A stretch of 64,000 nt of DNA from Acidimicrobiales bacterium. GTDB taxonomy: Bacteria; Actinomycetota; Acidimicrobiia; Acidimicrobiales; Aldehydirespiratoraceae. Under the pieces are notes generated by a model. It was given only the letters and a program-made list of their open reading frames with translations. It did no database searches and was not told the DNA's origin. The stretch is from assembly GCA_965116485.1 (NCBI GenBank), contig OZ220692.1, positions 2,459,152 to 2,523,151 of the forward strand, read 5' to 3'. Shown here in pieces: positions 5,948 to 24,504 of the stretch (positions are counted from its first letter, which is position 1; each line of letters begins with the position of its first letter). Made by a program: the position numbers and the translations under genes.

Positions 5948-6093
5948 ACTTTCAGTCTCGCACGAGAACCAGAAGCGAAAGCCGAATCACCGAAACAATC
6001 TCCCAGGCCGACCTGCCTACGAACCGGCGGAATCGCAGCGAACGCCCATACACAGGTAGGTTTGTCGCGAACCGGCCCACTCGGGGAGAACCA

Positions 6094-7320
6094 ATGTCGA
6101 CAGACACAGTCGCTGAAGATGAACTAGCCCAGTTTGCCGAGCGTTGCCGGGCATTCCTCGACGAACACGCCGTCGGAATCCACTCCGACGGCACGCCCGA
6201 CCCCCGAGGGGTCAAGCGGCTCGCCGCCAACAAAGAGTTCCAGCAGGCATTGGCCGAAGCAGGCCTCGCCGGCATCGTCTACCCGACCGAGTACGGAGGA
6301 GCCGGGCTCACCCGCGCACACGACCGGGTCTGGCGCGACATATACGCTCAGTACCCGAACATGAGCTTCGAGTTCACGATCTCCCACGGCATGTGCCTGC
6401 CGATGCTGGCCGAGTACGGCACTCACGAACAAAAGACCAGGTTCTTGGCCGACAACATCAGCGGGCGCACCGTGTGGTGCCAGATGTTCTCAGAACCGGG
6501 GGCAGGATCCGACGTGGCCAGCCTTCAAACAAGGGCCGAACGCGATGGCGACACATGGATCATCAACGGCCAGAAAGTATGGACGACCCTCGCCCATGTC
6601 AGCGACTACGGCGTGATCATCGCCCGCACCGATCCGAACGTTCCCAAACACGCCGGCATCTCCATGTTCATCGTGCCGATGGACGCGGCCGGAGTGGAGG
6701 TTCGCCCGATCAACCAGATCGACGGCGGCACCCACTTCAACGAGGTGTTCTTCACCGATGTTGAGATCCCCGCGGACAACCTCCTCGGCGATCTCAACAA
6801 CGGCTGGAACATGGCCACCGCCATGCTGATGTACGAACGCGTCGCCATCGGCACCGGCGCCACTGGAGGCGTCCGCCACGATCGCGCCGACCTGCTCATC
6901 GACGAAGCCACTGAACGCGGGATCATCGACCACCCGGTGCTGCGCCAGAAACTCATGCGGATCTACACCATGGAAACCTGCCAGTCACTCGTCTCGATGC
7001 GCACCCGCGCCGAGATGAAAGCCGGCAAAACCCCTGGACCCGGCGGTTCCATCAGCAAACTCGCCACCACCATCATCATGAACGAGGTACGCGACGTCTC
7101 GATGGAGATCGTCGGCGCCGGCGGTGTCGCCTGGGAGGATGAATCCGACGGTCGCTGGCAACGCGGGGCCCTGACCAGCCTGCAAGGCGGGATCGCCGGC
7201 GGCACCAACGAGATCCAGCGCAACATCATCGGCGACCGGGTGTTGGGCCTGCCTCGCGACATAAGCGTCGACAAGGGCGTCGCGTTCAAGGACCTCAAGG
7301 TCGGGACGCAGGGAGGTTAG
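6094..7320 (+). CDS. Acyl-CoA dehydrogenase family protein
   Basis: In ORF 5557-7320 the ACAD similarity starts at MSTDTVAEDELAQFAERCRAF (ATG 6094). Motifs FSEPGAGSDVASL and GGTNEIQRNIIGDRVLGLP. The upstream Pro/Arg-rich part is antisense to 4814-5947. Confidence 0.85.
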   Translation: MSTDTVAEDELAQFAERCRAFLDEHAVGIHSDGTPDPRGVKRLAANKEFQQALAEAGLAGIVYPTEYGGAGLTRAHDRVWRDIYAQYPNMSFEFTISHGMCLPMLAEYGTHEQKTRFLADNISGRTVWCQMFSEPGAGSDVASLQTRAERDGDTWIINGQKVWTTLAHVSDYGVIIARTDPNVPKHAGISMFIVPMDAAGVEVRPINQIDGGTHFNEVFFTDVEIPADNLLGDLNNGWNMATAMLMYERVAIGTGATGGVRHDRADLLIDEATERGIIDHPVLRQKLMRIYTMETCQSLVSMRTRAEMKAGKTPGPGGSISKLATTIIMNEVRDVSMEIVGAGGVAWEDESDGRWQRGALTSLQGGIAGGTNEIQRNIIGDRVLGLPRDISVDKGVAFKDLKVGTQGG

Positions 7321-7884
7321 CGGGTTCTTACCCGATTCTGGAGGATCCCGCCCAACCGACCGCGGACACCCCACAACACCCAACCAGCCACCACAACCAC
7401 ACCGCCACGGTGGATTCAGGCTTAGAGGCCCCGCGAATAGGCAGAGGATTTCCGAGTGCGAACGGCTTGATTTGCGGGGCCGTGGCCCGAGCGGCCCGGT
7501 GAGCGAAGCGAGCCAAGAGCGGGAAACAACGGGCTGCAACTCGAGGGCTTGCCTATTTGCGCGCGCTCTTATTCTCGGTCTGGTGTCGTAGGCGTGTGTT
7601 ATTGTCGTCTTTGAGATCGACTCAACCGTCGAGGAGTTTGCATGTGGCCAAGACAATCGAAACTTAGGTAGGCGAGCCAACTGGACATAGGTTGCTTGCC
7701 TCAGATGTCGCTCCTGCAGCGTGACGCAGGGCGCCGAGACTCAGTGAGCAACCCTCACAGAAAACCCGAGTACGCGTCGGGGGTCGAAGCGCAGTACAGA
7801 GCCGGATGGTGCATGGAGAGCGTGAGACAGACACGCGAAGGTCTCTCCGAAGAGTCAGCCAGCCGGAAGATATAGCCACAAATC

Positions 7885-7956
7885 GCGGTTGTAGTTCAAC
7901 TGGTAGAACGTCTGCTTGCCTAGCAGAGGGTTCGGGTTCAAGTCCCGGCAACCGCT
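7885..7956 (+). tRNA. tRNA-Gly(GCC)
   Basis: 72-nt hand-folded cloverleaf: acceptor gcggttg/caaccgc, D gttc/gaac, anticodon loop ttGCCta (unusual U37), T-arm tcggg-ttcaagt-cccgg, discriminator U. No encoded CCA. Confidence 0.85.
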
Positions 7957-8210
7957 CAACGGTCTCGACTTCAGACAGGATGAGGCTTGGATCGAGCCGA
8001 CGGTGAGGTTTCTGACGGACCACGGCATCTATCACAAGGTCGAAGTTCAGCAGGTCGCCCAGTGGGAAGCCGAGCACGCCGAGATACATCGGATCAAAGA
8101 CGAACAGGAGACCGAGGAACGCTCTAGGCGCGGCCATCCGGTCCCACACCGCGTGAAGCTCGGCAACGGACGTGAGGGCATCCGCTGGTCGTGACCGCTC
8201 GCAGCACCTA

Positions 8211-8282
8211 TCGGGGATGGTGTAATTGGCAACACATCGGGTTTTGGTCCCGAAATTGAAGGTTCAAGTCCTTCTCTCCGAT
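8211..8282 (+). tRNA. tRNA-Gln(TTG)
   Basis: 72 nt: acceptor tcgggga/tctccga (U1-A72 as in bacterial tRNA-Gln), loop ttTTGgt, T-arm gaagg-ttcaagt-ccttc. CCA encoded at 8283-8285. Confidence 0.9.
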
Positions 8283-8287
8283 CCAAT

Positions 8288-8360
8288 CCGCCTGTAGCTC
8301 AACGGATAGAGCACCTGACTTCGGATCAGGTGGTTGGAGGTTCGACTCCTCTCAGGCGGT
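8288..8360 (+). tRNA. tRNA-Arg(TCG)
   Basis: 73 nt: acceptor ccgcctg/caggcgg, D gctc/gagc, loop ctTCGga, T-arm ggagg-ttcgact-cctct. No CCA. Confidence 0.85.
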
Positions 8361-8371
8361 CGAAGAAACCC

Positions 8372-8458
8372 GGAAGCGTGGCAGAGTCTGGCTTATTGCG
8401 TCGGTCTTGAAAACCGGAGGGCTTCACGGTCCCGTGGGTTCAAATCCCACCGCTTCCT
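8372..8458 (+). tRNA. tRNA-Ser(TGA)
   Basis: 87-nt class II tRNA: acceptor ggaagcg/cgcttcc, loop ctTGAaa, long variable arm gggcttcacggtccc, T-arm gtggg-ttcaaat-cccac. Confidence 0.9.
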
Positions 8459-8629
8459 CGCTGAGTTGTGTGGCGATCTCAAATCGTCGTCTGCGTGCAG
8501 CGCTGCGCCGTTCGACGATGGGCTTGGCTCCCAATAGGAGTCTGTCCGAGGAGGACCACACACCGTCTTTGGGATTGATCCCCCGAAGGCGGCTCCCGAG
8601 TATCGACGGCTCGGGGGCTCAAAGTCTCT

Positions 8630-8702
8630 GGGGATGTAGTTCAATTGGAAGAACGCCGGTCTCCAAAACCGGAAGTTGCAGGTTCGAGTCCTGTCAGCCC
8701 CG
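8630..8702 (+). tRNA. tRNA-Trp(CCA)
   Basis: 73 nt: acceptor ggggatg/cagcccc (A5xG68 mismatch), loop ctCCAaa, T-arm gcagg-ttcgagt-cctgt. CCA encoded. Confidence 0.85.
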
Positions 8703-8706
8703 CCAA

Positions 8707-8779
8707 ACGCATGTAGCTCAGTGGATAGAGCATCTGGTTGCGGACCAGAAGGCCGGAGGTTCGACTCCTCTCATGCGTG
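8707..8779 (+). tRNA. tRNA-Arg(GCG)
   Basis: 73 nt: perfect acceptor acgcatg/catgcgt, loop ttGCGga, T-arm ggagg-ttcgact-cctct. No CCA. The anticodon has G34 rather than the usual bacterial A34. Confidence 0.85.
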
Positions 8780-8967
8780 CCGTTCCTGTGTTGACTGTGG
8801 CGTGCAGATCGACACAGACCCCCTAATAGGCTCTCAGGGGGTTGGCCTTGCGTGGAATCGAGACACCGCGCAAGGCGTGACTCGATGGCGTGTCCGCCAA
8901 CACGTCAACGAAGACCGAAGTCTCCGGTCAGAAGCCGCTCGGTATGAGGCCGTCGAGCGGCTCACTA

Positions 8968-9040
8968 TGGCGCGTAGCTCAGTTGGAAGAGCGTCTCGTT
9001 TACACCGAGAGGGCCGCGGGTTCGACCCCTGCCGCGCCAA
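8968..9040 (+). tRNA. tRNA-Val(TAC)
   Basis: 73 nt: acceptor tggcgcg/cgcgcca, loop ttTACac, T-arm gcggg-ttcgacc-cctgc. CCA encoded at 9041-9043. Confidence 0.9.
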
Positions 9041-9200
9041 CCAAAGCGACCACAGTCGCTTCACATTGCTAGCCGCTGGTGTCGGCCAGCGTGGTTCCCG
9101 GACCGCCCGACAGGGGGCACCGACCGAAGACAGAGTTCGATTCTCGGGTCCGGCCTATCCGACTTCTCCTCGCTTCTTCCGTACGGGGAGAAGTCGGCTC

Positions 9201-9273
9201 GGGGGTGTAGCTCAGTAGGTAGAGCGTCTGCTTTGCAAGCAGAAAGTCACGGGTTCGATTCCCGTCTCCTCCA
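9201..9273 (+). tRNA. tRNA-Ala(TGC)
   Basis: 73 nt: acceptor gggggtg/ctcctcc with the G3-U70 Ala identity pair and a U6xU67 mismatch, loop ttTGCaa, T-arm acggg-ttcgatt-cccgt. CCA encoded. Confidence 0.9.
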
Positions 9274-9280
9274 CCATCTC

Positions 9281-9352
9281 GCCCGAGTAGCTCAATTGGC
9301 AGAGCACCTGTCTTGTAAACAGGCGGTAGGAGTTCGACTCTCCTCTTGGGCT
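9281..9352 (+). tRNA. tRNA-Thr(TGT)
   Basis: 72 nt: acceptor gcccgag/cttgggc, loop ctTGTaa, T-arm aggag-ttcgact-ctcct. CCA encoded. Confidence 0.9.
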
Positions 9353-9566
9353 CCAAACCTGAAGGTCCGATTTGTCCGCTTCGGGTCTGATTTGCCGTGA
9401 CTAGTCCTGATCGTAAGATCAGCGGCAGACGCGGAGCACCCCAAGAAGGCTGGGTCCGGGGATCAAGCGGGGACGATGCTCTCGTTTGCGCTCGCCGATC
9501 CCCCGCCCGAGACTAAGCCGGAAGCGAGGTTGGATTCCTCGGGTTTCTGCGGGCCGCTTCGTGCTA

Positions 9567-9640
9567 CGGGTTGTGGCGCAGGCTGGCAGCGCGCCTCGTT
9601 CGGGACGACGAGGTCGACGGTTCAAATCCGTCCAACTCGA
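9567..9640 (+). tRNA. tRNA-Pro(CGG)
   Basis: 74 nt: acceptor cgggttg/caactcg (C1-G72 typical of tRNA-Pro), loop ttCGGga, one CxC mismatch in the anticodon stem, variable aggtc, T-arm gacgg-ttcaaat-ccgtc. No CCA. Confidence 0.8.
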
Positions 9641-9646
9641 CGTCTA

Positions 9647-9720
<74 letters not shown>

Positions 9721-9726
9721 CCACTA

Positions 9727-9799
9727 TCCGGGGTAGCTCAATTGGCAGAGCGGTCGGCTGTTAACCGACATGTTGGAGGTTCGAGTCCTCCCCTCGGAG
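9727..9799 (+). tRNA. tRNA-Asn(GTT)
   Basis: 73 nt: acceptor tccgggg/cctcgga (U1-A72), loop ctGTTaa, T-arm ggagg-ttcgagt-cctcc. No CCA. Confidence 0.9.
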
Positions 9800-9824
9800 C
9801 TTGCACGAAGCGAGTTCAGTTCAT

Positions 9825-9897
9825 GCGCCTCTAGCTCATCTGGAAGAGCGTCGGACTCTTAATCCGAAGGCACTGGGTTCGAGTCCCAGGAGGCGTG
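9825..9897 (+). tRNA. tRNA-Lys(CTT)
   Basis: 73 nt: acceptor gcgcctc/gaggcgt, loop ctCTTaa, T-arm ctggg-ttcgagt-cccag. CCA encoded. Confidence 0.9.
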
Positions 9898-9901
9898 CCA
9901 A

Positions 9902-9973
9902 GCCCCGGCGGTCTACCGGATGGACACCTGGTTTTCACCCAGGAGGCAGCGGGTTCGACTCCCGTCCGGGGTA
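9902..9973 (+). tRNA. tRNA-Glu(TTC)
   Basis: 72 nt: acceptor gccccgg/ccggggt, 3-bp D stem gtc/gac as in tRNA-Glu, loop ttTTCac, T-arm gcggg-ttcgact-cccgt. No CCA. Confidence 0.85.
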
Positions 9974-10002
9974 CGGATGGCTCGTGTGAGCCGACAATTT
10001 TT

Positions 10003-10077
10003 GGCTTCATAGCTCAGTCTGGTTAGAGCGTTGCCCTGTCAAGGCAGAGGTCGCCGGTTCAAATCCGGTTGGAGCCG
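10003..10077 (+). tRNA. tRNA-Asp(GTC)
   Basis: 75 nt: acceptor ggcttca/tggagcc, D gctc/gagc, loop ctGTCaa, T-arm gccgg-ttcaaat-ccggt, G73. CCA encoded. Confidence 0.9.
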
Positions 10078-10089
10078 CCAAAACACCGA

Positions 10090-10163
10090 CGAGGTGTAGC
10101 TCAATTTGGAAGAGCGCCTGGTTCTGACCCAGAAGGTCGCGAGTTCGATCCTCGCCGCCCCTG
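10090..10163 (+). tRNA. tRNA-like gene with Gln(CTG) anticodon; weak acceptor stem, possible pseudogene
   Basis: 74 nt: good D arm (gctc-aatttggaa-gagc) and T-arm gcgag-ttcgatc-ctcgc, loop ttCTGac. Acceptor cgaggtg/cgcccct has two mismatches (1-72, 3-70), plus a C27xA43 mismatch. The 5' half is nearly identical to tRNA-Pro(TGG) at 9647. Confidence 0.5.
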
Positions 10164-10247
10164 CCAACTCGTACCACTGCACCGCGTCCGCACTAGCAAC
10201 CCGCACATTCGTCAGCAATTTCATAGTTAGTGTGGTAGATTGCAGAC

Positions 10248-11078
10248 ATGGTGAACTCCATTGAGCCACGGGAACTGCGCGACATGATGGTCGAGCGCGG
10301 CATCGAGTTCGCTAGCGCTTCGGAGATCGCTGGATGGATCGGCTGCAACCTTCAGGAGGTTCCGCATCGACTGCGCGGAGCGCGACAAGCACGAGAGATG
10401 GTGTGCGTGACGCGTCACGGCTGGGTGCCGACTATTGGTGGACGTGTTGCTCCGAGCACGTTTATGGAACCGATGATGAAACATCTCGGGCACCGGTACT
10501 ACATGGCTGGGTTGTCTGCTGCTGCCCGCCACGGGGCCTCGCACCAAGCGCTGATGGTGGACCACTACGCCACCGACGGGCACCTCTCCAGTCGGAGCAT
10601 CCGAGGGTCGAAGCGTGTTGTGATGTTCCACCGACCGCATATTACAGAGTTCCCGACTGTCGAAATACAAATCAGGAACAGAGCGGGACATGCGTGCCCC
10701 CTCAGAATCTCAACACCGGAAGTATCGTTGTTCGACTTGTTCGCGTTGCACCCGTTCTACGGACAGGATTCCAACCTGAACGTTGCCTGCGAGCTTCTCG
10801 ACCCAGGCCCGCACTTGGAGCCGGTGCTTGATCCCGAAGCGTTGGCTTCTGTGGCAATGCTCTACAGTGTGCCGACCAGACAACGCGTCGGCTTTCTGCT
10901 AGAGGAGATGGCAGAACATGTTGGACGCGACTTCGACCTTGACCCGTTGGAATCGACGTTGGGTGCCGCGGCTAGGACCGTCGAGTATGAGTACGACCCA
11001 GATCGCAGCGAACCACCTATCAAGCATCACGACCGATGGCGAGTGCGCCAGTGGTACGAGATGTGGCCTGACCTGTGA
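10248..11078 (+). CDS. AbiEi-like antitoxin/transcriptional regulator (type IV toxin-antitoxin)
   Basis: 276-aa ORF. Its size, N-terminal wHTH-like region and GTGA overlap with a downstream AbiEii-like fragment fit AbiEi. The family assignment is recollection-level and was not searched. Confidence 0.5.
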   Translation: MVNSIEPRELRDMMVERGIEFASASEIAGWIGCNLQEVPHRLRGARQAREMVCVTRHGWVPTIGGRVAPSTFMEPMMKHLGHRYYMAGLSAAARHGASHQALMVDHYATDGHLSSRSIRGSKRVVMFHRPHITEFPTVEIQIRNRAGHACPLRISTPEVSLFDLFALHPFYGQDSNLNVACELLDPGPHLEPVLDPEALASVAMLYSVPTRQRVGFLLEEMAEHVGRDFDLDPLESTLGAAARTVEYEYDPDRSEPPIKHHDRWRVRQWYEMWPDL

Positions 11079-11308
11079 TCCATCTAAGCGCAATCCAACA
11101 GTGGGAAGAGAATCACCCTTGGCAAGATGATTCCCAAATCGAGCAGGACTTACTTCTTGAAGCAGTGTTGCACCGTGCCGCGAGTACGGGCAGGTTCGGA
11201 GAACTGGTCTTCATAGGCGGGCACGGCGCTACCCCATGTCGACGACGGGTCGCTCCGGGAAAGACATGCCCGATTCACCGTCAACGGCCACAAGGCGCTC
11301 CTTCGTAG
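11075..11308 (+). pseudogene. AbiEii/DUF1814-type nucleotidyltransferase toxin, N-terminal fragment only
   Basis: 77-aa ORF. IEQDLLLEAVLHRAAS...LVFIGG resembles the N-terminus of AbiEii toxins (normally about 250-300 aa). The reading frame decays after FIGG and the gene abuts tRNA-Thr at 11334. Confidence 0.5.
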
Positions 11309-11333
11309 AAGCAAGCCGCCGGGTCTTCCTCTA

Positions 11334-11406
11334 GCCGTTGTAGCTCAGTTGGCAGAGCGCCGTCATGGTAAGACGGAGGTCGCCGGTTCGATCCCGGCCT
11401 TCGGCT
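11334..11406 (+). tRNA. tRNA-Thr(GGT), acceptor stem with two UxU mismatches
   Basis: 73 nt: acceptor gccgttg/cttcggc (5-68 and 6-67 are UxU), loop atGGTaa (A32), T-arm gccgg-ttcgatc-ccggc. No CCA. Confidence 0.7.
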
Positions 11407-11426
11407 CAACGAGCATCGAATATCTA

Positions 11427-11502
11427 GCCCCGTTGGTCTAGTTTGGCTTAGGACACCGCCCTTTCAAGGCGAAGATCACGGGTTCAAATCCCGTACGGGG
11501 TA
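11427..11502 (+). tRNA. tRNA-Glu(TTC)
   Basis: 76 nt: acceptor gccccgt/acggggt, 3-bp D stem gtc/gac with a 13-nt loop, loop ctTTCaa, T-arm acggg-ttcaaat-cccgt, A73. No CCA. Confidence 0.8.
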
Positions 11503-11562
11503 CTGTGCGCCGTAGTGCATCTGTTTGGACAGCGGACGTGTACGGTTTTTGTGGCGCATCAC

Positions 11563-11638
11563 GCTGCGTTGGTCTAGTCAGGTTCAGGACGCCGCCCTGT
11601 CAAGGCGGAGGACACGGGTTCAAATCCCGTACGTGGCG
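11563..11638 (+). tRNA. tRNA-Asp(GTC) built on a Glu-type body
   Basis: 76 nt: acceptor gctgcgt/acgtggc, the same 3-bp D stem gtc/gac with 13-nt loop and the identical T-arm acggg-ttcaaat-cccgt as the Glu gene at 11427, loop ctGTCaa, G73. Confidence 0.8.
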
Positions 11639-11646
11639 CTCATTGC

Positions 11647-11720
11647 AGGCGCGTAGCTCAGTTGGTTAGAGCGCTCCCCTGATAAGGGAGAGGCCGATGG
11701 TTCAACTCCATCCGTGCCTA
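11647..11720 (+). tRNA. tRNA-Ile(GAT)
   Basis: 74 nt: acceptor aggcgcg/cgtgcct, loop ctGATaa, T-arm gatgg-ttcaact-ccatc. No CCA. Confidence 0.9.
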
Positions 11721-11725
11721 CAAGA

Positions 11726-11815
11726 GGAACGGTGGCGGAGTCCGGTTGATCGCACCGCCCTGCTAAGGCGGAGACGCACGACGTGTGTCCGTGGGTTCAA
11801 ATCCCACCCGTTCCG
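11726..11815 (+). tRNA. tRNA-Ser(GCT)
   Basis: 90-nt class II tRNA: acceptor ggaacgg/ccgttcc, loop ctGCTaa, long variable arm, T-arm gtggg-ttcaaat-cccac. CCA encoded. Confidence 0.9.
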
Positions 11816-11822
11816 CCAACAT

Positions 11823-11896
11823 GTCGGCGTGCCCGAGCGGACTAAGGGAGCTGCCTGCAAAGCAGCGATTCACGGGTTCAAATCCCGTCGCCGACT
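11823..11896 (+). tRNA. tRNA-Cys(GCA)
   Basis: 74 nt: acceptor gtcggcg/cgccgac, anticodon arm gctgc-ctGCAaa-gcagc, T-arm acggg-ttcaaat-cccgt, U73 (Cys identity). CCA encoded. Confidence 0.85.
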
Positions 11897-11900
11897 CCAG

Positions 11901-11975
11901 GGTTCGGTAGCTCAGATTTGGAAGAGCGCCTGTCTGAAAAGCAGGAGGCCGGCGGTTCGATTCCTGCTCGAACCA
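11901..11975 (+). tRNA. tRNA-Phe(GAA) with a defective T stem
   Basis: 75 nt: acceptor ggttcgg/tcgaacc, loop ctGAAaa. The T-arm ggcgg-ttcgatt-cctgc has two mismatched pairs (50-64, 51-63). No CCA. Confidence 0.65.
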
Positions 11976-11984
11976 CATCAACAC

Positions 11985-12071
11985 GTCAGTATGGCGCGAG
12001 CGGCGAAGGCACTCGGCTGTAAACCGAGCGAGGCGAAAGCCTCTTCCCCGGTTCAAGTCCTGGTGCTGCCA
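11985..12071 (+). tRNA. tRNA-Tyr(GTA), class II, several imperfect pairs
   Basis: 87 nt: perfect anticodon arm ctcgg-ctGTAaa-ccgag and variable arm gaggc-gaaa-gcctc. Acceptor gtcagta/tgctgcc (one mismatch), weak 3-bp D stem, T-arm cccgg-ttcaagt-cctgg (one mismatch). Confidence 0.6.
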
Positions 12072-12084
12072 CACAGTCTCATAA

Positions 12085-12170
12085 GCGGGCGTGGCGAAGC
12101 TGGTAGACGCGCCGGGCTTAGGACCCGGTGGGGTGGAAGCCCCGTGTGAGTTCGACTCTCACCGCCCGCA
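12085..12170 (+). tRNA. tRNA-Leu(TAG)
   Basis: 86-nt class II tRNA: acceptor gcgggcg/cgcccgc, loop ctTAGga, T-arm gtgag-ttcgact-ctcac, A73. Confidence 0.9.
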
Positions 12171-12175
12171 CTCAC

Positions 12176-12249
12176 GGTGATATAGCTCAGTTGGTTAGAG
12201 CGGCGCGCTCATAACGCGTAGGCCCCTGGTTCGATTCCAGGTATCACCA
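12176..12249 (+). tRNA. tRNA with CAT anticodon (elongator Met or lysidine-type Ile2; not an initiator)
   Basis: 74 nt: acceptor ggtgata/tatcacc with G1-C72, loop ctCATaa, anticodon stem gcgcg/cgcgt (no GGG/CCC initiator signature), T-arm cctgg-ttcgatt-ccagg. Confidence 0.85.
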
Positions 12250-12259
12250 CCGAACACTC

Positions 12260-12345
12260 GCGGGAGTGGTGAAGCTGGTAGACACGCCAGATTCAAAATC
12301 TGGTGGGCTGAGAGGCCCGTGTGGGTTCGACCCCCACCTCCCGCA
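12260..12345 (+). tRNA. tRNA-Leu(CAA)
   Basis: 86-nt class II tRNA: acceptor gcgggag/ctcccgc, loop ttCAAaa, T-arm gtggg-ttcgacc-cccac. CCA encoded. Confidence 0.9.
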
Positions 12346-12356
12346 CCATCAGAATT

Positions 12357-12429
12357 GCCTCTGTAGCTCAATTGGATGAGCGTCCGGTTTCTACCCGGAG
12401 GGCTGCGGGTTCGAGTCCTGCCAGGGGCG
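12357..12429 (+). tRNA. tRNA-Arg(TCT)
   Basis: 73 nt: acceptor gcctctg/caggggc, loop ttTCTac, T-arm gcggg-ttcgagt-cctgc. No CCA. Confidence 0.9.
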
Positions 12430-12621
12430 CTGTTAGCTGACGATCTCCGCGTTGTTCACGGTGTGACCGACGCGTACGCGGCTTTGGTCAACGCGGCGAC
12501 AGCTTCGTAACGGTCGTCATGCCGAGCGCACGGCTCGATCCAAACCTGTTTCTGATCCACAACGTCGATGGTAACCACCCTGCCAGACGCCATTACGACG
12601 ATCTACAGTTCCCACCATCTT

Positions 12622-12694
12622 GCGTCTCTAGCTCAACTGGTAGAGCAGCGGACTTTTAATCCGACGGTTCTGGGTTCGAGTCCCAGGAGACGTT
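12622..12694 (+). tRNA. tRNA-Lys(TTT)
   Basis: 73 nt: acceptor gcgtctc/gagacgt, loop ctTTTaa, T-arm ctggg-ttcgagt-cccag. No CCA. Confidence 0.85.
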
Positions 12695-12736
12695 CTGCAA
12701 ACCGACACACACCAGAACACAGAGAGGACAACCGCG

Positions 12737-13279
12737 ATGTCGAAAGCGCTTCTGCTCAACGCCTCATACGAGCCGTTGCACGTCGTTTCAACGCGCCGCG
12801 CCCTGGGTCTGATCCTCGCCGGGAAAGCCGACCTCGTGGAAGCCGGTGACGGTGAGTGGCGTTCAGCGTCGCACACGTTCCCGGTTCCGTTGGTGCTGCG
12901 TCTGCGCTACATGGTGCGGATTCCGTTCACGGCGCGTGTCCCGTTGAACCGCAAGACGTTGAAGGTCCGTGACGACGGGAAGTGCCAGGTCGCATCGTGC
13001 CGCGCTAGTGGAACGACCATAGATCACGTCGTGCCGCGTTCGCGTGGTGGTGACCACTCTTGGACGAACGTCGTGTTGATGTGCTCAGACCACAACCTCC
13101 AGAAAGCCGACCGGCTGCTCAGCGAACTCGGCTGGCGGCTCAAAGCAGTCCCGCGCGCGCCGAGACAGCATCAACTCGTGCTCGCAACATCGAACACGAA
13201 ACCGGACCCAGCTTGGCAGCCGTACCTCGCCGGGGGATCACGGTTCTCTGGCTGCGTTGAACCAGGTTCGCTATGCTGA
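12737..13279 (+). CDS. HNH endonuclease
   Basis: 180-aa ORF with DHVVPRSRGGDHSWTNVVLMCSDHNLQK (H-N-H motif). Starts 43 nt after tRNA-Lys(TTT). Confidence 0.8.
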   Translation: MSKALLLNASYEPLHVVSTRRALGLILAGKADLVEAGDGEWRSASHTFPVPLVLRLRYMVRIPFTARVPLNRKTLKVRDDGKCQVASCRASGTTIDHVVPRSRGGDHSWTNVVLMCSDHNLQKADRLLSELGWRLKAVPRAPRQHQLVLATSNTKPDPAWQPYLAGGSRFSGCVEPGSLC

Positions 13280-13282
13280 GCT

Positions 13283-13489
13283 ATGAGCCGACGGGATGAT
13301 GTGCTGGTGAAGCACCGTGAAGCGATAGTCGCTGCTGCGAAACGAGAGAGGGCGCTCTCTTTCGCGTTCGTGGGTTCCACTGCCCGTGGTGAAGATATCC
13401 CCGACAGCGACCTGGACTTCCTAGTCGAGTTCAAGAAGGGCATCACCTTGTGCGGGATCGGTCGACTTGAAGCTGACCTTCAAGACATG
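13283..13489 (+). pseudogene. MNT-type nucleotidyltransferase (HEPN/MNT antitoxin-like), 3'-truncated
   Basis: FVGSTARGEDIPDSDLDFLVEF is the GSxxRG...SDxDLLV minimal-nucleotidyltransferase motif. Similarity ends near LEADLQD (about aa 68), and the rest of ORF 13283-13735 runs into the antisense of a tRNA. No HEPN partner is present. Confidence 0.55.
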
Positions 13490-13696
13490 CGTCGGATGGG
13501 ATGGGAACGGCGGCAAGGGTCAACAGCCGTCGAAAGCCGCTCGGCCCGGAGGGAAACCAGGCCAGCGCATACGCTCCCAAGACCAGCACAAACAAACCCG
13601 GACAGAGCCCCCACGGGCACCATCCGATATAAAGCCCCTAATTTGCCCTGTTCAGAAAGGGTGCTCGGCACCGGCCACGCCCGGCAACCAGCACAG

Positions 13697-13770
13697 CACC
13701 TCCGACAGGACTCGAACCTGCAACCTGCGAGGTAGAAGCTCGCTGCTCTATCCAGTTGAGCTACGGAGGC
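13697..13770 (-). tRNA. tRNA-Arg(TCT)
   Basis: 74 nt on the minus strand: acceptor gcctccg/cggaggt, loop ctTCTac, T-arm gcagg-ttcgagt-cctgt. Confidence 0.85.
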
Positions 13771-13854
13771 ACAATAATCGTACGCCGAGTGCCGCAACTC
13801 GGTACACTCAATGCCTGACTCCGCTCCGGGTCAACGCTCGGAACGGGGCAACAT

Positions 13855-13929
13855 GGTGGGCGTAGCTCAGTTGGTTAGAGCGCCTGGTTGTGGTCCAGGA
13901 GGTCGGGGGTTCGAGTCCCCTCGTTCACC
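13855..13929 (+). tRNA. tRNA-His(GTG) with encoded G-1
   Basis: 75 nt including G-1 (13855) opposite C73: acceptor gtgggcg/cgttcac, loop ttGTGgt, T-arm ggggg-ttcgagt-cccct. Confidence 0.9.
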
Positions 13930-13955
13930 CGTAGAATCGCCTTCGGTCGATACGC

Positions 13956-14028
13956 GCACCTCTAGCTCAATTGGCAGAGCAACGGACTCTTAATCCGCAG
14001 GTTCTGGGTTCGAGTCCCAGGGGGTGTA
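13956..14028 (+). tRNA. tRNA-Lys(CTT)
   Basis: 73 nt: acceptor gcacctc/ggggtgt, loop ctCTTaa, T-arm ctggg-ttcgagt-cccag. CCA encoded at 14029-14031. Confidence 0.85.
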
Positions 14029-14102
14029 CCACAGGCTCCAGATCTTGCACTGCCTCAGCGGAGCCACAACAGCGAATCGAGCAGTTTCACGAAGCTGGCT
14101 CC

Positions 14103-14534
14103 CTAGTGCGGATTCAGAACCTCGACGCGCCGCGGGTCAGCAGAGATCGCTGCCATAGCCTGGTCGAAAGTGGCAACGCAACCGTCGTAGCGCTCGGCCA
14201 AGGACAACAGGTGGAGATCGGTGACCTGTCGATGACCGGTGACCCCCGCTCGGTGCCAAGCCTGCGAGCGTGCCGGAACGATGTCGTCCACCCAGAATCG
14301 GTGCCCGGTGAATTCGGTGAGTGATCGCAGCACCGCCGCTGCCTCCCGCGGTGGGCGAGCATCAGCGAGTACACGCGAGTTCGAGGAAACACGGATAAAG
14401 CCCAACTGCACCACGGCCGACGTAGCCCATGATTCAACCCTTCGGGAGAGAAACCAGTCGACGGCTGCGCCGTGGTGAAGATGAGTAGGCCATGCCAAGG
14501 CAACGAGTACGTTGACGTCTAGAAGTGGTGTCAC
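14103..14534 (-). CDS. vapC: PIN-domain toxin VapC
   Basis: 143 aa: LLDVNVLVAL N-terminal acidic motif, later VTDLHLLSLA and ATFD acidic positions typical of PIN. 4-bp overlap with the upstream antitoxin gene. Confidence 0.8.
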   Translation of the reverse strand: MTPLLDVNVLVALAWPTHLHHGAAVDWFLSRRVESWATSAVVQLGFIRVSSNSRVLADARPPREAAAVLRSLTEFTGHRFWVDDIVPARSQAWHRAGVTGHRQVTDLHLLSLAERYDGCVATFDQAMAAISADPRRVEVLNPH

Positions 14535-14752
14535 CAGTCTTCGCTCGCTGAACGGACCATCTCAGGGGTGATTGGTTGACTGGCTGGTTCGACGGTGAAT
14601 CCCGGAACAGCACGCCTCGTGTCCACAGGCCGGTCTTGCAGTCCTTTGCGAGCCAAGTCCGAAACTGCGGTACCGACCGATACACCACGTTCGCGAGCGA
14701 GCGAGCGCGCCACCGCAAGAACATCATCAGCCAAATTCAGTGTTGTGCGCAT
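14531..14752 (-). CDS. vapB: VapB-type antitoxin
   Basis: About 73 aa: MRTTLNLADDVLAVARSLARERGVSVGTAVSDLARKGL is typical of VapB-like antitoxins. The ORF track starts at GTG 14755; ATG 14752 is the likelier start. Confidence 0.7.
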   Translation of the reverse strand: MRTTLNLADDVLAVARSLARERGVSVGTAVSDLARKGLQDRPVDTRRAVPGFTVEPASQPITPEMVRSASEDW

Positions 14753-14758
14753 CACAAC

Positions 14759-14787
14759 ATCATAGCATCATATTGCGGTTTTGACAC
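14759..14787 (-). promoter_or_regulatory. Candidate vapBC promoter giving a leaderless mRNA
   Basis: Minus strand reads gtgtca-N17-TATGAT-gttgtg-ATG. The -10 TATGAT (14759-14764) ends 6 nt before ATG 14752. A direct repeat atcata-gc-atcata overlaps the -10. Confidence 0.35.
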
Positions 14788-14813
14788 TACGGATTACCTT
14801 GCGGTGGGGAACC

Positions 14814-14925
14814 AACCCGCGGGCGATCGACAAAGTGACCGGGTCACCGGCGTGGATCGAGGCGAACAGCACCGCGACCATGGCGACCGCTGCTGCCAGC
14901 AAGTCCAGGAGCGGAGGAAACTCCG
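14814..14925 (-). pseudogene. 112-bp fragment homologous to the membrane-protein gene at 32276-33130
   Basis: 14814-14925 aligns without gaps to 32661-32772 (about 15 mismatches by eye). It translates to PPLLDLLAAAVAMVAVLFASIHAGDPVTLSIARGLV versus PPSLDLAAAAVAMVAVLFASINAGDPVALSIARGLV. Confidence 0.8.
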
Positions 14926-14939
14926 ACGTCTGCGTCGAG

Positions 14940-15236
14940 ATCGTGCTCAACAACGTGCCCACCCTGGGTGAATCGCATCAGGCATGGCAGCTCAACGAGA
15001 TCAGCTCGCTGATCTGGCCGTCCCCGCTCGGAGCGGGCGTGATGGACCCGGACCTGTGGGCCCAGACGGTCGACGTCGCCACCAGCGAGGGCATTCTCGG
15101 CGCAGCTCCGGACGACGGCGCCGATCGCACCGACATCGCCGAAGAGGCGCTCGAGAACCTGCGCGATCAGGGCATCGACGTGGTCGGCTCCGATTTCGAA
15201 CGGATTGTCGTCGAGCTTCGCGAAGGCGGCGAGTAG
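14940..15236 (+). pseudogene. 3' fragment of a solute-binding-protein-like gene
   Basis: Only the tail ...NNVPTLGESHQAWQLNEISSLIWPSPLGAGVMDPDLWAQTVDV...VVGSDFERIVVELREGGE reads like a real protein. It resembles the C-terminus of NMT1/THI5-type ABC substrate-binding proteins, which is weak recollection-level similarity. No N-terminal part is present. Confidence 0.3.
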
Positions 15237-15263
15237 CGCACGCGCCCGGCAGAACCTGATCCG

Positions 15264-15644
15264 CTAAAGCGGATCCGACTGGAAGACGCCCAGGACGTTG
15301 CCGCTCGGGTCCAAGAAGTGGAACCGCCGTCCCCCCGGGTAGGGGTAGATCGCTGAGATGATCTCCCCTCCCGCGGCGACCACTTCAGTCTGTTTGGCTT
15401 CGATGTCGGAGCAGCTGACCAGCACGAACGGACCGATCGGGTCCTCTGATCCCGGCGCATGGGCCGGGGCGGCCGTACCCGCGCCGTTGAGTCCGACCTC
15501 GACCGCGCCGCCTTCGTGGGCGACATAGCTGGGCCCGTATTCGGTCCAGTCCCAGCCGAACACCCGGCTGTAGAACTGCTTGGTCTGCTCCAACTGCGGC
15601 GCAGGAAGCTCAACGTAGTCGATCTGCAATCTGTCGCTCGCCAT
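15264..15644 (-). CDS. VOC (glyoxalase/bleomycin-resistance) family protein
   Basis: 126 aa: IDYVELPAPQLEQTKQFYSRVFGW ... RRFHFLDPSGNVLGVF is a typical VOC-fold pattern. Confidence 0.75.
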   Translation of the reverse strand: MASDRLQIDYVELPAPQLEQTKQFYSRVFGWDWTEYGPSYVAHEGGAVEVGLNGAGTAAPAHAPGSEDPIGPFVLVSCSDIEAKQTEVVAAGGEIISAIYPYPGGRRFHFLDPSGNVLGVFQSDPL

Positions 15645-15719
15645 CGCCCGACTCTACCCGGCCACACAGCCGACCACATAAGCAACCGGGGCTCCGGCTA
15701 CGCCCGGCGACCAGCAACG

Positions 15720-15793
15720 CACCTCCGACAGGACTCGACCCTGCAACCCGCGAGGTAGAAGCTCGCTGCTCTGTCCAGTCGAGCTACGGTGGC
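15720..15793 (-). tRNA. tRNA-Arg(TCT) copy 2, probably degenerate
   Basis: Same frame as 13697-13770, but acceptor gccaccg/cggaggt has an A4xA69 mismatch and the T-loop reads gtcgagt (T54 replaced by G). Confidence 0.55.
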
Positions 15794-15877
15794 GGAATAA
15801 TCGTACGCCGAGTGCCGCAACTCGGCACCCCCAATGCCTGACTCCGCTCCGGGTCAACGCCCGGGACGGGGCAACAT

Positions 15878-15952
15878 GGTGGGCGTAGCTCAGTTGGTTA
15901 GAGCGCCTGGTTGTGGTCCAGGAGGTCGGGGCTTCGAATCCCCTCGTTCACC
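15878..15952 (+). tRNA. tRNA-His(GTG) copy 2, T-arm altered
   Basis: Identical acceptor, G-1 and anticodon arm to copy 1. The T-arm is ggggc-ttcgaat-cccct, which breaks the near-invariant G53-C61 pair. Confidence 0.65.
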
Positions 15953-15978
15953 CGTAGAATCGCCTTCGGTCGATTCGC

Positions 15979-16051
15979 GCACCTCTAGCTCAATTGGCAG
16001 AGCAACGGACTCTTAATCCGCAGGTTCTGGGTTCGAGACCCAGGGGGTGTA
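15979..16051 (+). tRNA. tRNA-Lys(CTT) copy 2
   Basis: Same cloverleaf as 13956-14028. T-loop is ttcgaga, and the 3' trailer is caa instead of cca. Confidence 0.75.
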
Positions 16052-16128
16052 CAACGCAAAACCCCTAGTCAGTACAAGTTCTGTGCCGACCTGGGGTTCT
16101 GTCGTCCAGGTACGGGACACGTCCGTGG

Positions 16129-16887
16129 TTACACGGTGGCCCCAACAGATCCGCGCCCTGGCCCCTCCTCACGCCCTGAAGCGGCCCAGACCATGCCGCG
16201 GCGCATGATCTCGGTAACCTCAGGCTTGCGGAGGTCGTCGATCTCATGGCCGATCGAGCAGTAGAAGACTCGGCCCTGGTCCCACCGTCGCTTCCACACG
16301 ACCGGGATCGTGGACCCTTCGATCCACCAGAGATGGTCGCCGGAGAAGGTCGTCGTCGCGAGAACGTCGTTCGAAGGGTCGACGAGCATGTAGTACTGCT
16401 CCGACAGCAGCCGGAAGCTTCCGATCCCCGCAACGATCGGGTCGGCCGGTTTGGTGATCGTGACGTCGTAGTCGACATAGTCATCGGATGGGACGGGGTT
16501 GTCGGGCCACCCGGGCGGATGGGCAACGAACTGGCCACCGATGAGGAAGTGGTACGTGGGCCGATCCCGGAACGCGTCCCCCATGTGACCGTGCCAACCC
16601 GCAATCCCACAGCCGTTAGCGATCAATTCGAGCAGGCCATCTTCTTCGGCCTTGTTCATGTTGCCGAATTCGGGCTGGTGAGCCGAGCGTGCGCTCGACC
16701 AGATCGGCACGATCAGGTCGACGTCGGCCATGGAACCCGGGGTAGCCAGCGGCGCCAAGGTGTCATAGGAGAAGACGTTGAAGCCCTCCGCTTCCAGAAG
16801 GTCGGTGGCCCAGTCGCAGAATGCCTGCGGTCTGTGCCCCTCCCAACCTCCGACGAACAAGGCCGCGGTCTTGGTGGCTCTGGTCAC
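16129..16887 (-). CDS. ThuA-domain protein
   Basis: 252 aa. Resembles ThuA (trehalose-utilisation) family proteins: GWHGHMGDAF, FVAHPPGW, VFYCSIGH. Confidence 0.7.
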   Translation of the reverse strand: MTRATKTAALFVGGWEGHRPQAFCDWATDLLEAEGFNVFSYDTLAPLATPGSMADVDLIVPIWSSARSAHQPEFGNMNKAEEDGLLELIANGCGIAGWHGHMGDAFRDRPTYHFLIGGQFVAHPPGWPDNPVPSDDYVDYDVTITKPADPIVAGIGSFRLLSEQYYMLVDPSNDVLATTTFSGDHLWWIEGSTIPVVWKRRWDQGRVFYCSIGHEIDDLRKPEVTEIMRRGMVWAASGREEGPGRGSVGATV

Positions 16888-17750
16888 GAGTTGCTCCTGA
16901 GATGTGAGAGAACGGCCGCCATGTCGCGCTCACCGAAGCCGTCAGCTTCCGCCGAGCGGAGCTGGGCCAGGTTGAGTTCGGTCTGCGGCAGCGCGACATC
17001 GGTCGCTGCCGCGAGCTCGACGGCGAGTTCCAGGTCTTTGCGCGCCAAAGAAAGGGCGAAAGACACCGGGTTGTCAGCTTCTGCGAGATACTGGGGCTTT
17101 CGGTAGCCGATCATCGGCGCGGCAGCCGCGGAGTTCTCGATCACCTCGTACGCGAGCGCCGGTTCGACACCATTCGTTTCGGCCAGCGTCAGCGCTTCAC
17201 TCAGCGATTGGTTGACGCTGTGGATCATGAGGTTGACGGCCAGCTTCATGGTTGCGGCGGTGCCAGGCTGACCGAGCCAGATGATCTGTCGGCTCATGGC
17301 CTCGAGTGTCGGCCGGATCACCTCGCCGGTCTCTGCGTCGGCTCCGACCATGATGAGGAGTCGGGCTGAGCTCGCCGCGTCGATCGAACCCGACACCGGA
17401 GCGTCGATCACGAGCCGTTGGCCGCTCGACGCCTGCAACTCACGAACATGCTCCACGCTCAGCGTGCCCATCTCTACGAACACCTGCGCACCGCGGGCGG
17501 CCGCAAAGAGGCCGTCATCTCCGAAGTGCACAGCGCGCGATGCGTCATCGTCGGCCAGCATCGTGATCACGATGTCGCAGCCTTCGGCCACTACGCGAGG
17601 CGTGTCGGCAATCTCAGCGCCGATTTCGTCGGCCAGCGCGGTCGCCTTCGGGCGGCTCCGGTTCCACAGCATCAGTGAAAACCCGGCCTGAGCCAGGTTG
17701 ACCGCCATCGGTGCGCCCATTCGCCCGAGACCGATGACGCCGACTCGCAT
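16884..17750 (-). CDS. NAD(P)-dependent oxidoreductase, 3-hydroxyisobutyrate dehydrogenase family
   Basis: Real start MRVGVIGLGRMGAPMAVNL (ATG 17750, overlapping the upstream TGA by 1 nt). The remainder of ORF 16884-18410 is antisense to the SDR gene. Confidence 0.8.
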   Translation of the reverse strand: MRVGVIGLGRMGAPMAVNLAQAGFSLMLWNRSRPKATALADEIGAEIADTPRVVAEGCDIVITMLADDDASRAVHFGDDGLFAAARGAQVFVEMGTLSVEHVRELQASSGQRLVIDAPVSGSIDAASSARLLIMVGADAETGEVIRPTLEAMSRQIIWLGQPGTAATMKLAVNLMIHSVNQSLSEALTLAETNGVEPALAYEVIENSAAAAPMIGYRKPQYLAEADNPVSFALSLARKDLELAVELAAATDVALPQTELNLAQLRSAEADGFGERDMAAVLSHLRSNS

Positions 17751-24496: not shown

Positions 24497-24504
24497 TTGC
24501 CACG

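Follow-up and report, generated by a model that had tools for sequence, protein, structure and literature searches.

A dense array of tRNA genes lies in the window analysed here, a 64,000-nucleotide stretch (contig OZ220692.1, positions 2,459,152 to 2,523,151) from an Acidimicrobiales bacterium (assembly GCA_965116485.1). The locus is best explained as an accessory tRNA array unit, of the L-array type and gained by horizontal transfer. It is about 8.5 kb in length (roughly 7.6-16.1 kb of the window) and placed at a variable chromosomal spot; the probability of this reading is put at about 0.6. The array is a co-oriented, packed set of tRNA genes belonging to a homologous family that ends in tRNA-Lys and an HNH endonuclease gene, a family whose members sit at loci that vary from genome to genome. 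Deletions, duplications and recombination between tRNA genes continue to alter the content of the array. It is regarded as accessory and mobile because it is absent at the flanks of relatives and because a homologous array occupies another locus in a related genome (L091, described below). The element is of a known kind, and what is new is its host class; among the papers of the library searched, none pairs a tRNA array with Acidimicrobiia.

Composition and coding scope of the array

ARAGORN, applied to the whole window, identified 35 tRNA genes, all within 7885-16052 and none in the remainder of the 64 kb. Rfam family RF00005 at its gathering threshold backs 34 of these with scores of 49-75 bits; the only one under the threshold is tRNA-Tyr at 11985-12072, which scores 28.5 bits against a cut-off of 29. 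Counted from the ARAGORN output, the array contains 28 distinct anticodons and all 20 amino-acid isotypes. The first-pass annotation, made from the letters alone, had folded 35 tRNA genes in four blocks with the same numbers of anticodons and amino acids, and this census was reproduced. A tRNA array unit has been defined as at least 20 tRNA genes at a density of at least 2 per kb (Tran et al., PMC4758250; PMC5966550). The window array falls within this definition with 35 genes by ARAGORN or 34 by Rfam, at 4.3 genes per kb (35 genes in 8168 bp). The same annotation had likened the locus to the arrays of Firmicutes, cyanobacteria, Mycobacterium and large phages; the kind of array was correctly recognized, but the host, a member of the Acidimicrobiales, lies outside the taxa listed. 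The four blocks are as follows.

7885-10166, plus strand: tRNA block 1, 16 genes (ARAGORN and Rfam), in the order Gly(GCC), Gln(TTG), Arg(TCG), Ser(TGA), Trp, Arg(GCG), Val(TAC), Ala(TGC), Thr(TGT), Pro(CGG), Pro(TGG), Asn, Lys(CTT), Glu(TTC), Asp, Gln(CTG)
11334-12695, plus strand: tRNA block 2, 13 genes (ARAGORN and Rfam), in the order Thr(GGT), Glu(TTC), Asp, Ile(GAT), Ser(GCT), Cys, Phe (chimeric), Tyr, Leu(TAG), Met/Ile2(CAT), Leu(CAA), Arg(TCT), Lys(TTT)
13696-14031, mixed strands: tRNA triplet A, Arg(TCT) on the minus strand, His(GTG) and Lys(CTT) on the plus strand (ARAGORN; Rfam 64-65 bits)
15719-16052, mixed strands: tRNA triplet B, which duplicates triplet A in diverged form (Rfam 49, 58 and 61 bits)

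Thirty-three genes are on the plus strand and two, both tRNA-Arg(TCT), on the minus strand, each of the latter heading an Arg/His/Lys triplet. Gaps between tRNAs inside sub-blocks measure 1-28 nt, and the spacers between the sub-blocks of block 1 measure 157-253 nt. The CCA end is encoded in about 14 of the 35 genes and missing from roughly 21. Anticodons with U34 or G34 account for 22 of the 28. The G+C content of the window is 63%. The duplicated triplet is the sole long internal repeat of the array, a gapless direct repeat of 366 bp (13667-14032 and 15690-16055) with 94% identity between the copies; triplet B, which ends 77 nt from the stop codon of the ThuA gene, carries G54 and T-stem mismatches. 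The repeat brackets a PIN-toxin pair, one unassigned open reading frame (ORF) and a glyoxalase gene.

The only tRNA with a CAT anticodon (12176-12251) is read as an elongator Met or Ile2 tRNA and not an initiator, because it has a paired G1-C72 and lacks the GGG/CCC run in the anticodon stem; the initial observation that no initiator tRNA is present is thereby upheld. Besides the initiator, the array leaves GGA and GGG undecoded, since Gly(GCC) is the sole Gly tRNA, as well as, in this strain, UUA. Other tRNA genes must therefore exist elsewhere in the genome. No rRNA gene was detected by Rfam in the 64-kb window.

Genomic placement and synteny

The array is flanked by two genes of ordinary metabolism, as had been annotated at first and as Pfam reproduced.

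5557-7320: acyl-CoA dehydrogenase (FadE), left flank (Pfam)
16129-16887, minus strand: ThuA, right flank (Pfam)

A Mycobacterium origin, initially suggested by the 63% G+C content and by published arrays, was rejected on the evidence of the FadE relatives. All 80 loci retrieved with the FadE protein were from Acidimicrobiales metagenome-assembled genomes (MAGs), the best of them labelled Candidatus Aldehydirespiratoraceae or Acidimicrobiaceae, with 84-89% amino acid identity; several of the closest MAGs presumably derive from sponge samples, judging by their isolate names. DNA synteny of the left flank with relatives extends from about 2040 to 7310 and ends with FadE. No tRNA gene was found downstream of FadE in any of 40 FadE-syntenic loci from GTDB genomes, and neither array nor triplet was found at ThuA in any of 60 loci from JGI metagenomes. 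On the right, colinearity with a congener (L113) covers window positions 16178-26939 at 89% nucleotide identity and breaks off at 16178, on the array side. The last syntenic sequence before the array is the intergenic segment 7424-7567 on the 3' side of FadE, which is 78% identical over 169 nt to locus L013 and contains an inverted repeat.

A homologous array is present in Acidimicrobiaceae bacterium COS4_bin_1 (GCA_026706815.1; locus L091). It has 21 tRNAs, is colinear with the window array over several segments at 74-92% identity, and is situated between recA/msrB and gltX, while the FadE locus of the same genome (L012) is empty. Colinearity between block 2 of the window and L091 covers 6798-7515 and 9735-9959 of the latter, where identity is 74-84%. 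Both arrays share the run Glu-Asp-Ile-Ser-Cys-Phe followed by Leu-Met-Leu (the Leu anticodons differ between the two), the end module Arg(TCT)-Lys(TTT)-HNH, and an MNT gene. Beside gltX, the same genome has canonical counterparts of its array genes Glu(CTC) and Gln(CTG); the array copies are only 71% and 60% identical to them, respectively. The absence from 100 related loci and the occurrence of a homologous array elsewhere in L091 are features of the long, non-periodic, patchily distributed and horizontally derived arrays termed L-arrays.

The Arg/His/Lys triplet beside ThuA was also considered as an ancestral housekeeping seed of the array. This idea was rejected, as none of the 60 ThuA loci has the triplet; it is further contradicted by the triplet tRNA-Lys, which resembles the HNH-adjacent Lys genes of other arrays. 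Searches of the PLSDB plasmids and INPHARED phages in distant mode returned only generic tRNA-level matches and no close DNA relative.

The HNH-linked array family

An HNH endonuclease gene follows block 2. It had been left unnamed in the first-pass annotation, and it matters for classification because it links the window array to known array families.

12737-13279, plus strand: HNH endonuclease (Pfam HNH/HNH_5/HNH_4)

The ORF is intact, starts 41 nt on the 3' side of tRNA-Lys(TTT) on the same strand, and is preceded by a Shine-Dalgarno-like sequence (GAGAGGA). The catalytic motif D-H...N...N is conserved, and the protein also matches Cas9 HNH models. As many as 2861 homologues were found, and the genomic context was looked up for eight close ones (63-83% identity). 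In all eight, tRNA genes lie directly upstream on the same strand and end in Lys, and in seven these form arrays of 11-54 tRNAs. The tRNA counts within 10 kb upstream of the HNH gene are given below.

L091/L092: 21 and 20 tRNAs
L094: 12 tRNAs
L095: 1 tRNA
L111: 42 tRNAs
L112: 51 tRNAs (54 in the whole locus)
L194: 11 tRNAs
L195: 24 tRNAs
L196: 22 tRNAs

Gene order is partly common to these related arrays, including Arg(TCG)...Trp-Arg(GCG), Pro/Asn/Lys/Glu/Asp, and Phe/Leu...Arg(TCT)-Lys-HNH. The tRNA-Lys-HNH pair is the conserved 3' end module of this array family. At L095 (9879-10522), a lone tRNA-Lys(TTT) followed by HNH is found directly after an ATP synthase operon on a contig of 51% G+C. 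The tRNA-Lys-HNH module may be a seed or mobile core of such arrays.

More distant HNH homologues (36-39% identity) align over the full length and retain the catalytic motif. One of them is inside the 32-tRNA array of the Mycolicibacterium plasmid pCBMA213_1 (39% identity, E = 2e-15), the founding case of the Mycobacterium array literature. Another adjoins a 17-tRNA array on a Frondihabitans plasmid, and a third is embedded among the 30 tRNAs of an array on a viral contig from IMG/VR. Homologues are also found in Nostoc and Acaryochloris plasmids (36-39% identity) and in many tRNA-rich phages. No tRNAs were found near the HNH homologue at L098, at L099 or on 9 of 11 viral contigs. HNH genes linked to tRNA arrays have been reported in Mycobacterium (PMC5966550) and cyanobacteria (PMC8421152), and accessory tRNA arrays with HNH genes have already been described (PMC5966550, PMC8421152, PMC12803027).

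The arrays at L111 (a 432-kb contig labelled '_c'), L112, L195 and L196, which count 22-54 tRNAs within the retrieved loci, are situated in regions rich in unannotated genes. Their neighbours include genes for a BrxC/D-like ATPase, AbiEii, TnpB, RNase T, ThyX, a T4-type RNA ligase (near the L196 array) and a 2871-amino-acid protein. All four probably belong to plasmids or large phages, which may serve as vehicles spreading the array family.

Remodelling of the array between strains

A draft assembly of the same species (GCA_044628435.1) carries the array on its own 7.9-kb contig, L086; its ThuA side is on a separate contig, L001, with 99.9% identity to the window. Four extra tRNA genes, Leu(TAA), Leu(GAG), Ser(GGA) and Val(GAC), are present between Phe and Tyr in L086. 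Comparison with L086 (4395-4846) by three-way alignment revealed that the window gene at this junction is a composite.

11901-11976, plus strand: chimeric tRNA, 5' part from Phe and 3' end from Val(GAC)

In the same alignment, the window has a 377-bp deletion that passes through the T-arm segment GGTTCGATTCC, common to Phe and Val(GAC). The alignment indicates that recombination inside this shared segment removed four tRNAs and left a Phe/Val hybrid. Outside the deletion, the window and L086 differ at 4 positions in 7.5 kb (>99.9% identity over the shared array). Because the strains are otherwise near-identical, the loss of four tRNAs and the damage to a fifth were tolerated very recently.

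Phe and Val(GAC) of L086 have an identical 5' acceptor and D-arm, and Val(GAC) looks like a remoulded Phe paralogue. Near triplet copy B the strains diverge more densely, with 8 differences in about 1 kb compared with 4 in 7.5 kb elsewhere in the array, which hints at gene conversion there.

Impaired and unusual tRNAs

Five array tRNAs (Tyr, Gln(CTG), Phe, Glu 9902 and Arg 15719) look impaired, and 30 of the 35 have clean cloverleaves with ordinary Rfam scores. Three stem pairs are mismatched in tRNA-Tyr 11985, Gln(CTG) 10090 has a C1/U72 mismatch and three mismatched pairs, and the chimeric Phe 11901 has two T-stem mismatches and an Rfam score of 50.8 bits. Glu 9902 carries C8 and Arg 15719 carries G54.

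Between arrays, tRNAs with the same anticodon are 63-93% identical. When such tRNAs were compared, 365 stem pairs were changed on both sides yet still paired, versus 16 that were broken, in a comparison where both partners had been picked by a tRNA finder. This pattern of compensated change indicates that the array genes are maintained as tRNAs while diverging fast.

Resemblances between isotypes were also observed. Asp(GTC) at 11563-11639 is 83% identical to Glu(TTC) at 11427-11503, with anticodons one base apart. The 5' half of Gln(CTG) (10090-10166) is like that of Pro(TGG) (9647-9723) and its body is Pro/Phe-like; it lacks the U1-A72 pair present in the canonical-looking Gln(TTG) at 8211. 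Several array members are possibly anticodon-shifted paralogues. Arg(GCG), located at 8707-8781 in the window, occurs also at L111 3158 and L112 5837, and the plasmid and viral arrays compared (L096, L097 and L109) have Arg(ACG) in its place. Arg(ACG) is the usual bacterial form, and a GCG anticodon for Arg is unusual in bacteria.

Conserved non-tRNA elements

Two conserved elements that are not tRNAs were recognized in the array region.

9392-9562, plus strand: structured RNA R1, about 170 nt, in the spacer between tRNA-Thr(TGT) and tRNA-Pro(CGG) (covariance model)
7786-7862, plus strand: leader element, about 75 nt, 25-100 nt upstream of the first tRNA (80-81% identity to L111 1808-1882 and L112 1751-1814)

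The fold of R1 includes a 16-bp closing stem and internal hairpins; its 5' hairpin carries the invariant bulge GACUAGUCC, and its terminal hairpin resembles a tRNA T-arm. Besides the window, copies are found at the same position in L091 (5785-5952) and three times in L112 (3905-4068, 4247-4409 and 6845-7026). A covariance model built from three copies recovered the other two with E = 4e-14 and 9e-10. Compensatory double changes were detected in 19 of 55 pairs, and 89.8% of cells were paired versus 31-49% in slid controls, figures obtained from five copies in an alignment fitted to the model. R1 matches no Rfam family, including YrlA. The covariance model search detected no copy in L094, L111 or L194-L196, and the core motif was unmatched in IMG/VR. 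Classification of R1 as a tRNA, a tmRNA or a Y-RNA-like molecule was rejected, since relaxed ARAGORN calls were inconsistent and included no tmRNA, and Rfam returned nothing.

Counterparts of the leader are located just 5' of the first tRNA in the L111 (42-tRNA) and L112 (54-tRNA) arrays. RNAalifold predicted a leader hairpin with 18 conserved pairs, four of them showing compensatory changes. On the 3' side of the leader, terminator-like hairpins of 10 and 20 bp are present in L112 and a 15-bp hairpin in L111; none is present in the window. The leader may act as a promoter/operator for the array, or as a leader RNA of the attenuator type. A scan of the array for sigma-70 promoters and intrinsic terminators gave counts not above shuffled expectation.

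Three plus-strand spacers of block 1 (8460-8629, 8782-8967 and 9044-9200) contain runs of perfect 7-14-bp hairpins (z = -4.4, -4.7 and -2.9), for which blastn found no counterparts in other arrays. These hairpins could be processing or stability signals, U-less terminators or remnants of repeat elements.

Protein genes within the array

The protein genes interleaved with the tRNA blocks, in addition to HNH, are listed below.

10248-11078, plus strand: AbiEi-like gene, type IV antitoxin/DNA-binding autorepressor family (Pfam AbiEi_1, 1.6e-10; PADLOC AbiEi, 2e-25)
11075-11308, plus strand: AbiEii toxin remnant, 77-codon ORF (PADLOC AbiEii, profile positions 1-50 of 260)
13283-13735, plus strand: truncated MNT-type nucleotidyltransferase, antitoxin-like (Pfam NTP_transf_2, residues 24-53; PADLOC PDC-S09, positions 1-70 of about 100)
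14103-14755, minus strand: putative VapBC-type pair, consisting of a PIN-domain gene (14103-14534; Pfam PIN, 1.2e-6) and a small upstream gene (14531-14755)
15264-15644, minus strand: glyoxalase/VOC-family gene, between the two triplets (Pfam Glyoxalase, 4e-14)

Interruption of the array by toxin-antitoxin genes and gene fragments, as initially described, was borne out by AbiEi with its truncated AbiEii, the truncated MNT gene and the PIN pair; that description had omitted the glyoxalase gene, along with HNH. AbiEi in the window has no intact toxin partner. Its protein is 71% identical to that of a gene inside the L196 array (2365-3311), with DNA homology over window positions 10269-11181 (73% over 921 nt), and the L196 gene likewise precedes a short AbiEii stump of about 40-50 codons. 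This parallel suggests that AbiEi has been kept without its toxin for a function of its own, possibly a regulatory one such as that of a co-opted array regulator.

The MNT homology covers only the first ~69 residues, after which the ORF enters the antisense tRNA-Arg; the window MNT is 88% identical to a 97-amino-acid MNT beside the L091 array. The PIN gene overlaps the putative antitoxin ORF by 4 nt, and this antitoxin (14531-14755) is assigned by position and size only, its sole Pfam match being DUF6364 below threshold. PIN (VapC) toxins cleave tRNAs. The glyoxalase gene is also present in the same-species contig L001.

No integrase, transposase, recombinase, phage or conjugation domain was detected by Pfam or PADLOC among the ORFs tested in 7.3-16.1 kb, which agrees with the early remark that no integrase is visible. 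The array does not resemble a cluster borne on a prophage or an integrative and conjugative element (ICE), and the flanks, with ORFs screened to 27 kb, are core metabolic genes.

Comparison with known tRNA arrays

The array units of Mycobacteriaceae, known from chromosomes, from pCBMA213_1 and from linear plasmids of M. avium (PMC5966550, PMC6515697, PMC12803027), belong to the same phylum as the window. They comprise 20-39 tRNAs in 3-19 kb for about 20 amino acids, a size similar to that of the window array, and share with it a host-like G+C content, an embedded HNH gene, the lack of an integrase and a sporadic distribution. HNH in these arrays is sometimes mis-annotated as Cas9, in line with the Cas9 HNH matches of the window protein. 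Unlike them, the window array is from the class Acidimicrobiia and has Arg(GCG) where they have Arg(ACG). The XRE regulator of mycobacterial G2 arrays is absent and an orphan AbiEi is found instead. Gene order differs from that of pCBMA213_1, the one mycobacterial array compared directly, and same-anticodon tRNAs are 53-84% identical to those of that plasmid; the common isotype order and close tRNAs that define the Mycobacterium groups G1-G5 were not found.

The L-arrays of cyanobacteria, such as the trn operon of Anabaena PCC 7120 with its HNH gene all8564 (PMC8421152, PMC10272220), are likewise long and non-periodic. They are supernumerary, adding redundant tRNA genes to a separate housekeeping set, as the window array probably does too; indirect support for this comes from its missing initiator and incomplete decoding, the four-tRNA difference from a near-identical strain and the paired array and canonical Glu and Gln copies of L091. 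They also show a patchy distribution suggestive of horizontal transfer, insertions, duplications and deletions around a conserved core, and some defective members. A homing-endonuclease gene of the same HNH family is linked to the array in both cases (12737-13279 in the window), although it is upstream of the operon in cyanobacteria and at the 3' end after tRNA-Lys in the window. The 9-nt operator repeats and TrcR control of Anabaena are not evident in the window, for which no detailed search was made.

Large-phage tRNA clusters with homing endonucleases, as in T4 (SegB), cluster C and M mycobacteriophages and the cyanophages S-CRM01 and S-TIM5 (PMC13096335, PMC6409571, PMC10264068), are dense and multi-isotype like the window array. 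They too have HNH or homing endonucleases interleaved, and a role against tRNA-cleaving defences has been proposed for them. In contrast to these clusters, phage structural, replication and integration genes are absent in and beside the window array, and its flanks are core chromosomal genes. The ICE-borne array of Acidithiobacillus (PMC4758250) is also an accessory, horizontally acquired chromosomal array, but the window has neither an ICE backbone nor an integrase. The window array differs from the Firmicutes-type housekeeping operon in that it has no rRNA gene within 64 kb, is not conserved in relatives and has no initiator.

Proposed function and alternative explanations

Rightward transcription of the blocks would yield a small number of polycistronic precursors, the HNH message being part of the same transcript as the tRNAs; this is inferred because the genes are co-oriented and tightly spaced and HNH begins so close behind tRNA-Lys. 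RNase P and RNase Z would cut the precursors, and the CCA-adding enzyme would complete those tRNAs without an encoded CCA. The products would duplicate isoacceptors encoded elsewhere in the genome. Their most likely use would be as a reserve tRNA pool that sustains translation when housekeeping tRNAs are depleted, cleaved or modified, and possible triggers include anticodon nucleases, PIN or MenT/AbiEii-type toxins and translational stress. In Anabaena, the array stays silent in normal growth; impaired translation induces it, and it then helps the cells to survive (PMC8421152). Phage-encoded tRNAs neutralize anticodon nucleases, retron effectors and PARIS (PMC10264068, PMC11555353, PMC11464382), and the M. 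avium array units have been discussed as anti-defence elements (PMC12803027). AbiEii/MenT-type toxins act on tRNA (PMC7450476, PMC10435456). The genes interleaved with the window array belong to families with tRNA-acting toxins, and the T4-type RNA ligase gene near the L196 array is a similar hint; this context is no more than suggestive of a reserve role. By way of DNA breaks and recombination, the HNH nuclease probably helps the array to persist, spread or rearrange. SegB of T4 has been proposed to drive spread and rearrangement (PMC13096335), and a similar homing-endonuclease proposal for cluster M mycobacteriophages is cited in PMC5966550.

Several observations weigh against the reading of the locus as a horizontally acquired, working accessory array. 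No array-free FadE-ThuA junction was found among the 100 loci, and this empty site could not be reconstructed because both flanks are synteny breakpoints. No integrase, transposase or att-like repeat points to how the array arrived, and no sigma-70-like promoter was found in front of it. The redundancy with housekeeping tRNAs is presumed. Strain single-nucleotide differences, 4 in 5 kb of non-tRNA and 0 in 2.5 kb of tRNA sequence, are too few for a test of selection. Signs of decay are also present (the chimeric Phe, the sub-threshold Tyr, the mismatched Gln(CTG), the degraded triplet B, and the truncated AbiEii and MNT), and the chromosomal copy may be partly or wholly inert.

Such decay leads to the main rival explanation, in which the array came by phage or plasmid and is now a relic, neutral DNA heading for loss. 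The truncated toxin and antitoxin genes, the chimeric Phe with four tRNAs lately lost, the weak Tyr, Gln(CTG) and Glu(9902), triplet B, the promoter scan without a match and a leader without the downstream hairpins of L111 and L112 are all as a relic would predict. A relic would not be expected to retain clean cloverleaves and ordinary Rfam scores in 30 of its 35 tRNAs, stem changes that are overwhelmingly compensated across arrays, an intact HNH ORF with ribosome-binding site and catalytic residues, or an AbiEi that shares 71% identity with its counterpart in a distant array when both arrays have a truncated toxin gene. On balance this explanation is unlikely, but it deserves serious consideration.

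A further reading, which goes beyond that of an accessory array unit, is advanced only tentatively. The Acidimicrobiales arrays (window, L091, L094, L111, L112 and L194-L196) would constitute a distinct, undescribed lineage of mobile tRNA cassettes, each a self-contained and regulated "backup translation" unit against tRNA-targeting toxins. Its own control parts would be the leader, the orphan AbiEi, the ~170-nt tRNA-like RNA and the tRNA-Lys-HNH end.

It is improbable that the array is a codon-supply booster, whose extra tRNAs lift translation capacity or fit the codon usage of certain genes. That is the classical account of phage tRNAs (reviewed in PMC10264068), and the predominance of U34 or G34 anticodons (22 of 28) would suit it; yet published L-arrays add redundancy and not new decoding and are silent in normal growth (PMC8421152), and the window array is unlinked to rRNA or ribosomal genes and varies in content between near-identical strains.

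The first-pass annotation had itself offered a housekeeping set as the alternative to be checked through flank synteny, and this alternative, a tRNA set gathered at one locus in the manner of Firmicutes, is largely refuted. Although all 20 amino acids are represented amid ordinary metabolic genes, relatives have no array at either flank in 100 related loci, and content differs between strains of the same species through an indel that takes out four tRNAs. The initiator and some codon families are missing, so that codons are left undecoded; the array copies of a relative coexist with canonical Glu and Gln genes by gltX that are 60-71% identical to them; and no rRNA operon is nearby.

That a plasmid or phage segment was misjoined into a chromosomal MAG contig is very unlikely, although the short-read assembly GCA_044628435.1 has the array on its own contig, broken on both sides: L086 starts at 7507 and has a 60-nt overlap with segment 7424-7567, a stretch whose homologue in L013 also lies downstream of FadE (further support for this left junction was not obtained, as the exact FadE protein was unmatched and the contig of the upstream gene ends inside FadE, so that the 60-nt overlap remains), on L001 the ThuA gene is contiguous with triplet B and the glyoxalase gene, and the right-hand breaks (L002-L005, L087-L089) are in or near the 366-bp repeat, an expected stop for short reads.

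Significance

The role of accessory tRNA arrays is currently being rethought, with tRNA-cleaving immunity and toxins as the threats that they would counter, and few hosts have been described. The window extends such arrays to Acidimicrobiia, an abundant uncultured marine lineage. Metagenomic contigs reveal a whole family of its relatives, the largest with 54 tRNAs in about 11 kb, that have the tRNA-Lys-HNH end in common. It also provides a clean natural case of array remodelling, in which T-arm recombination of two tRNA genes led to the loss of four genes and the making of a hybrid. The leader, the orphan AbiEi and the ~170-nt RNA are concrete handles on how tRNA arrays are switched on.

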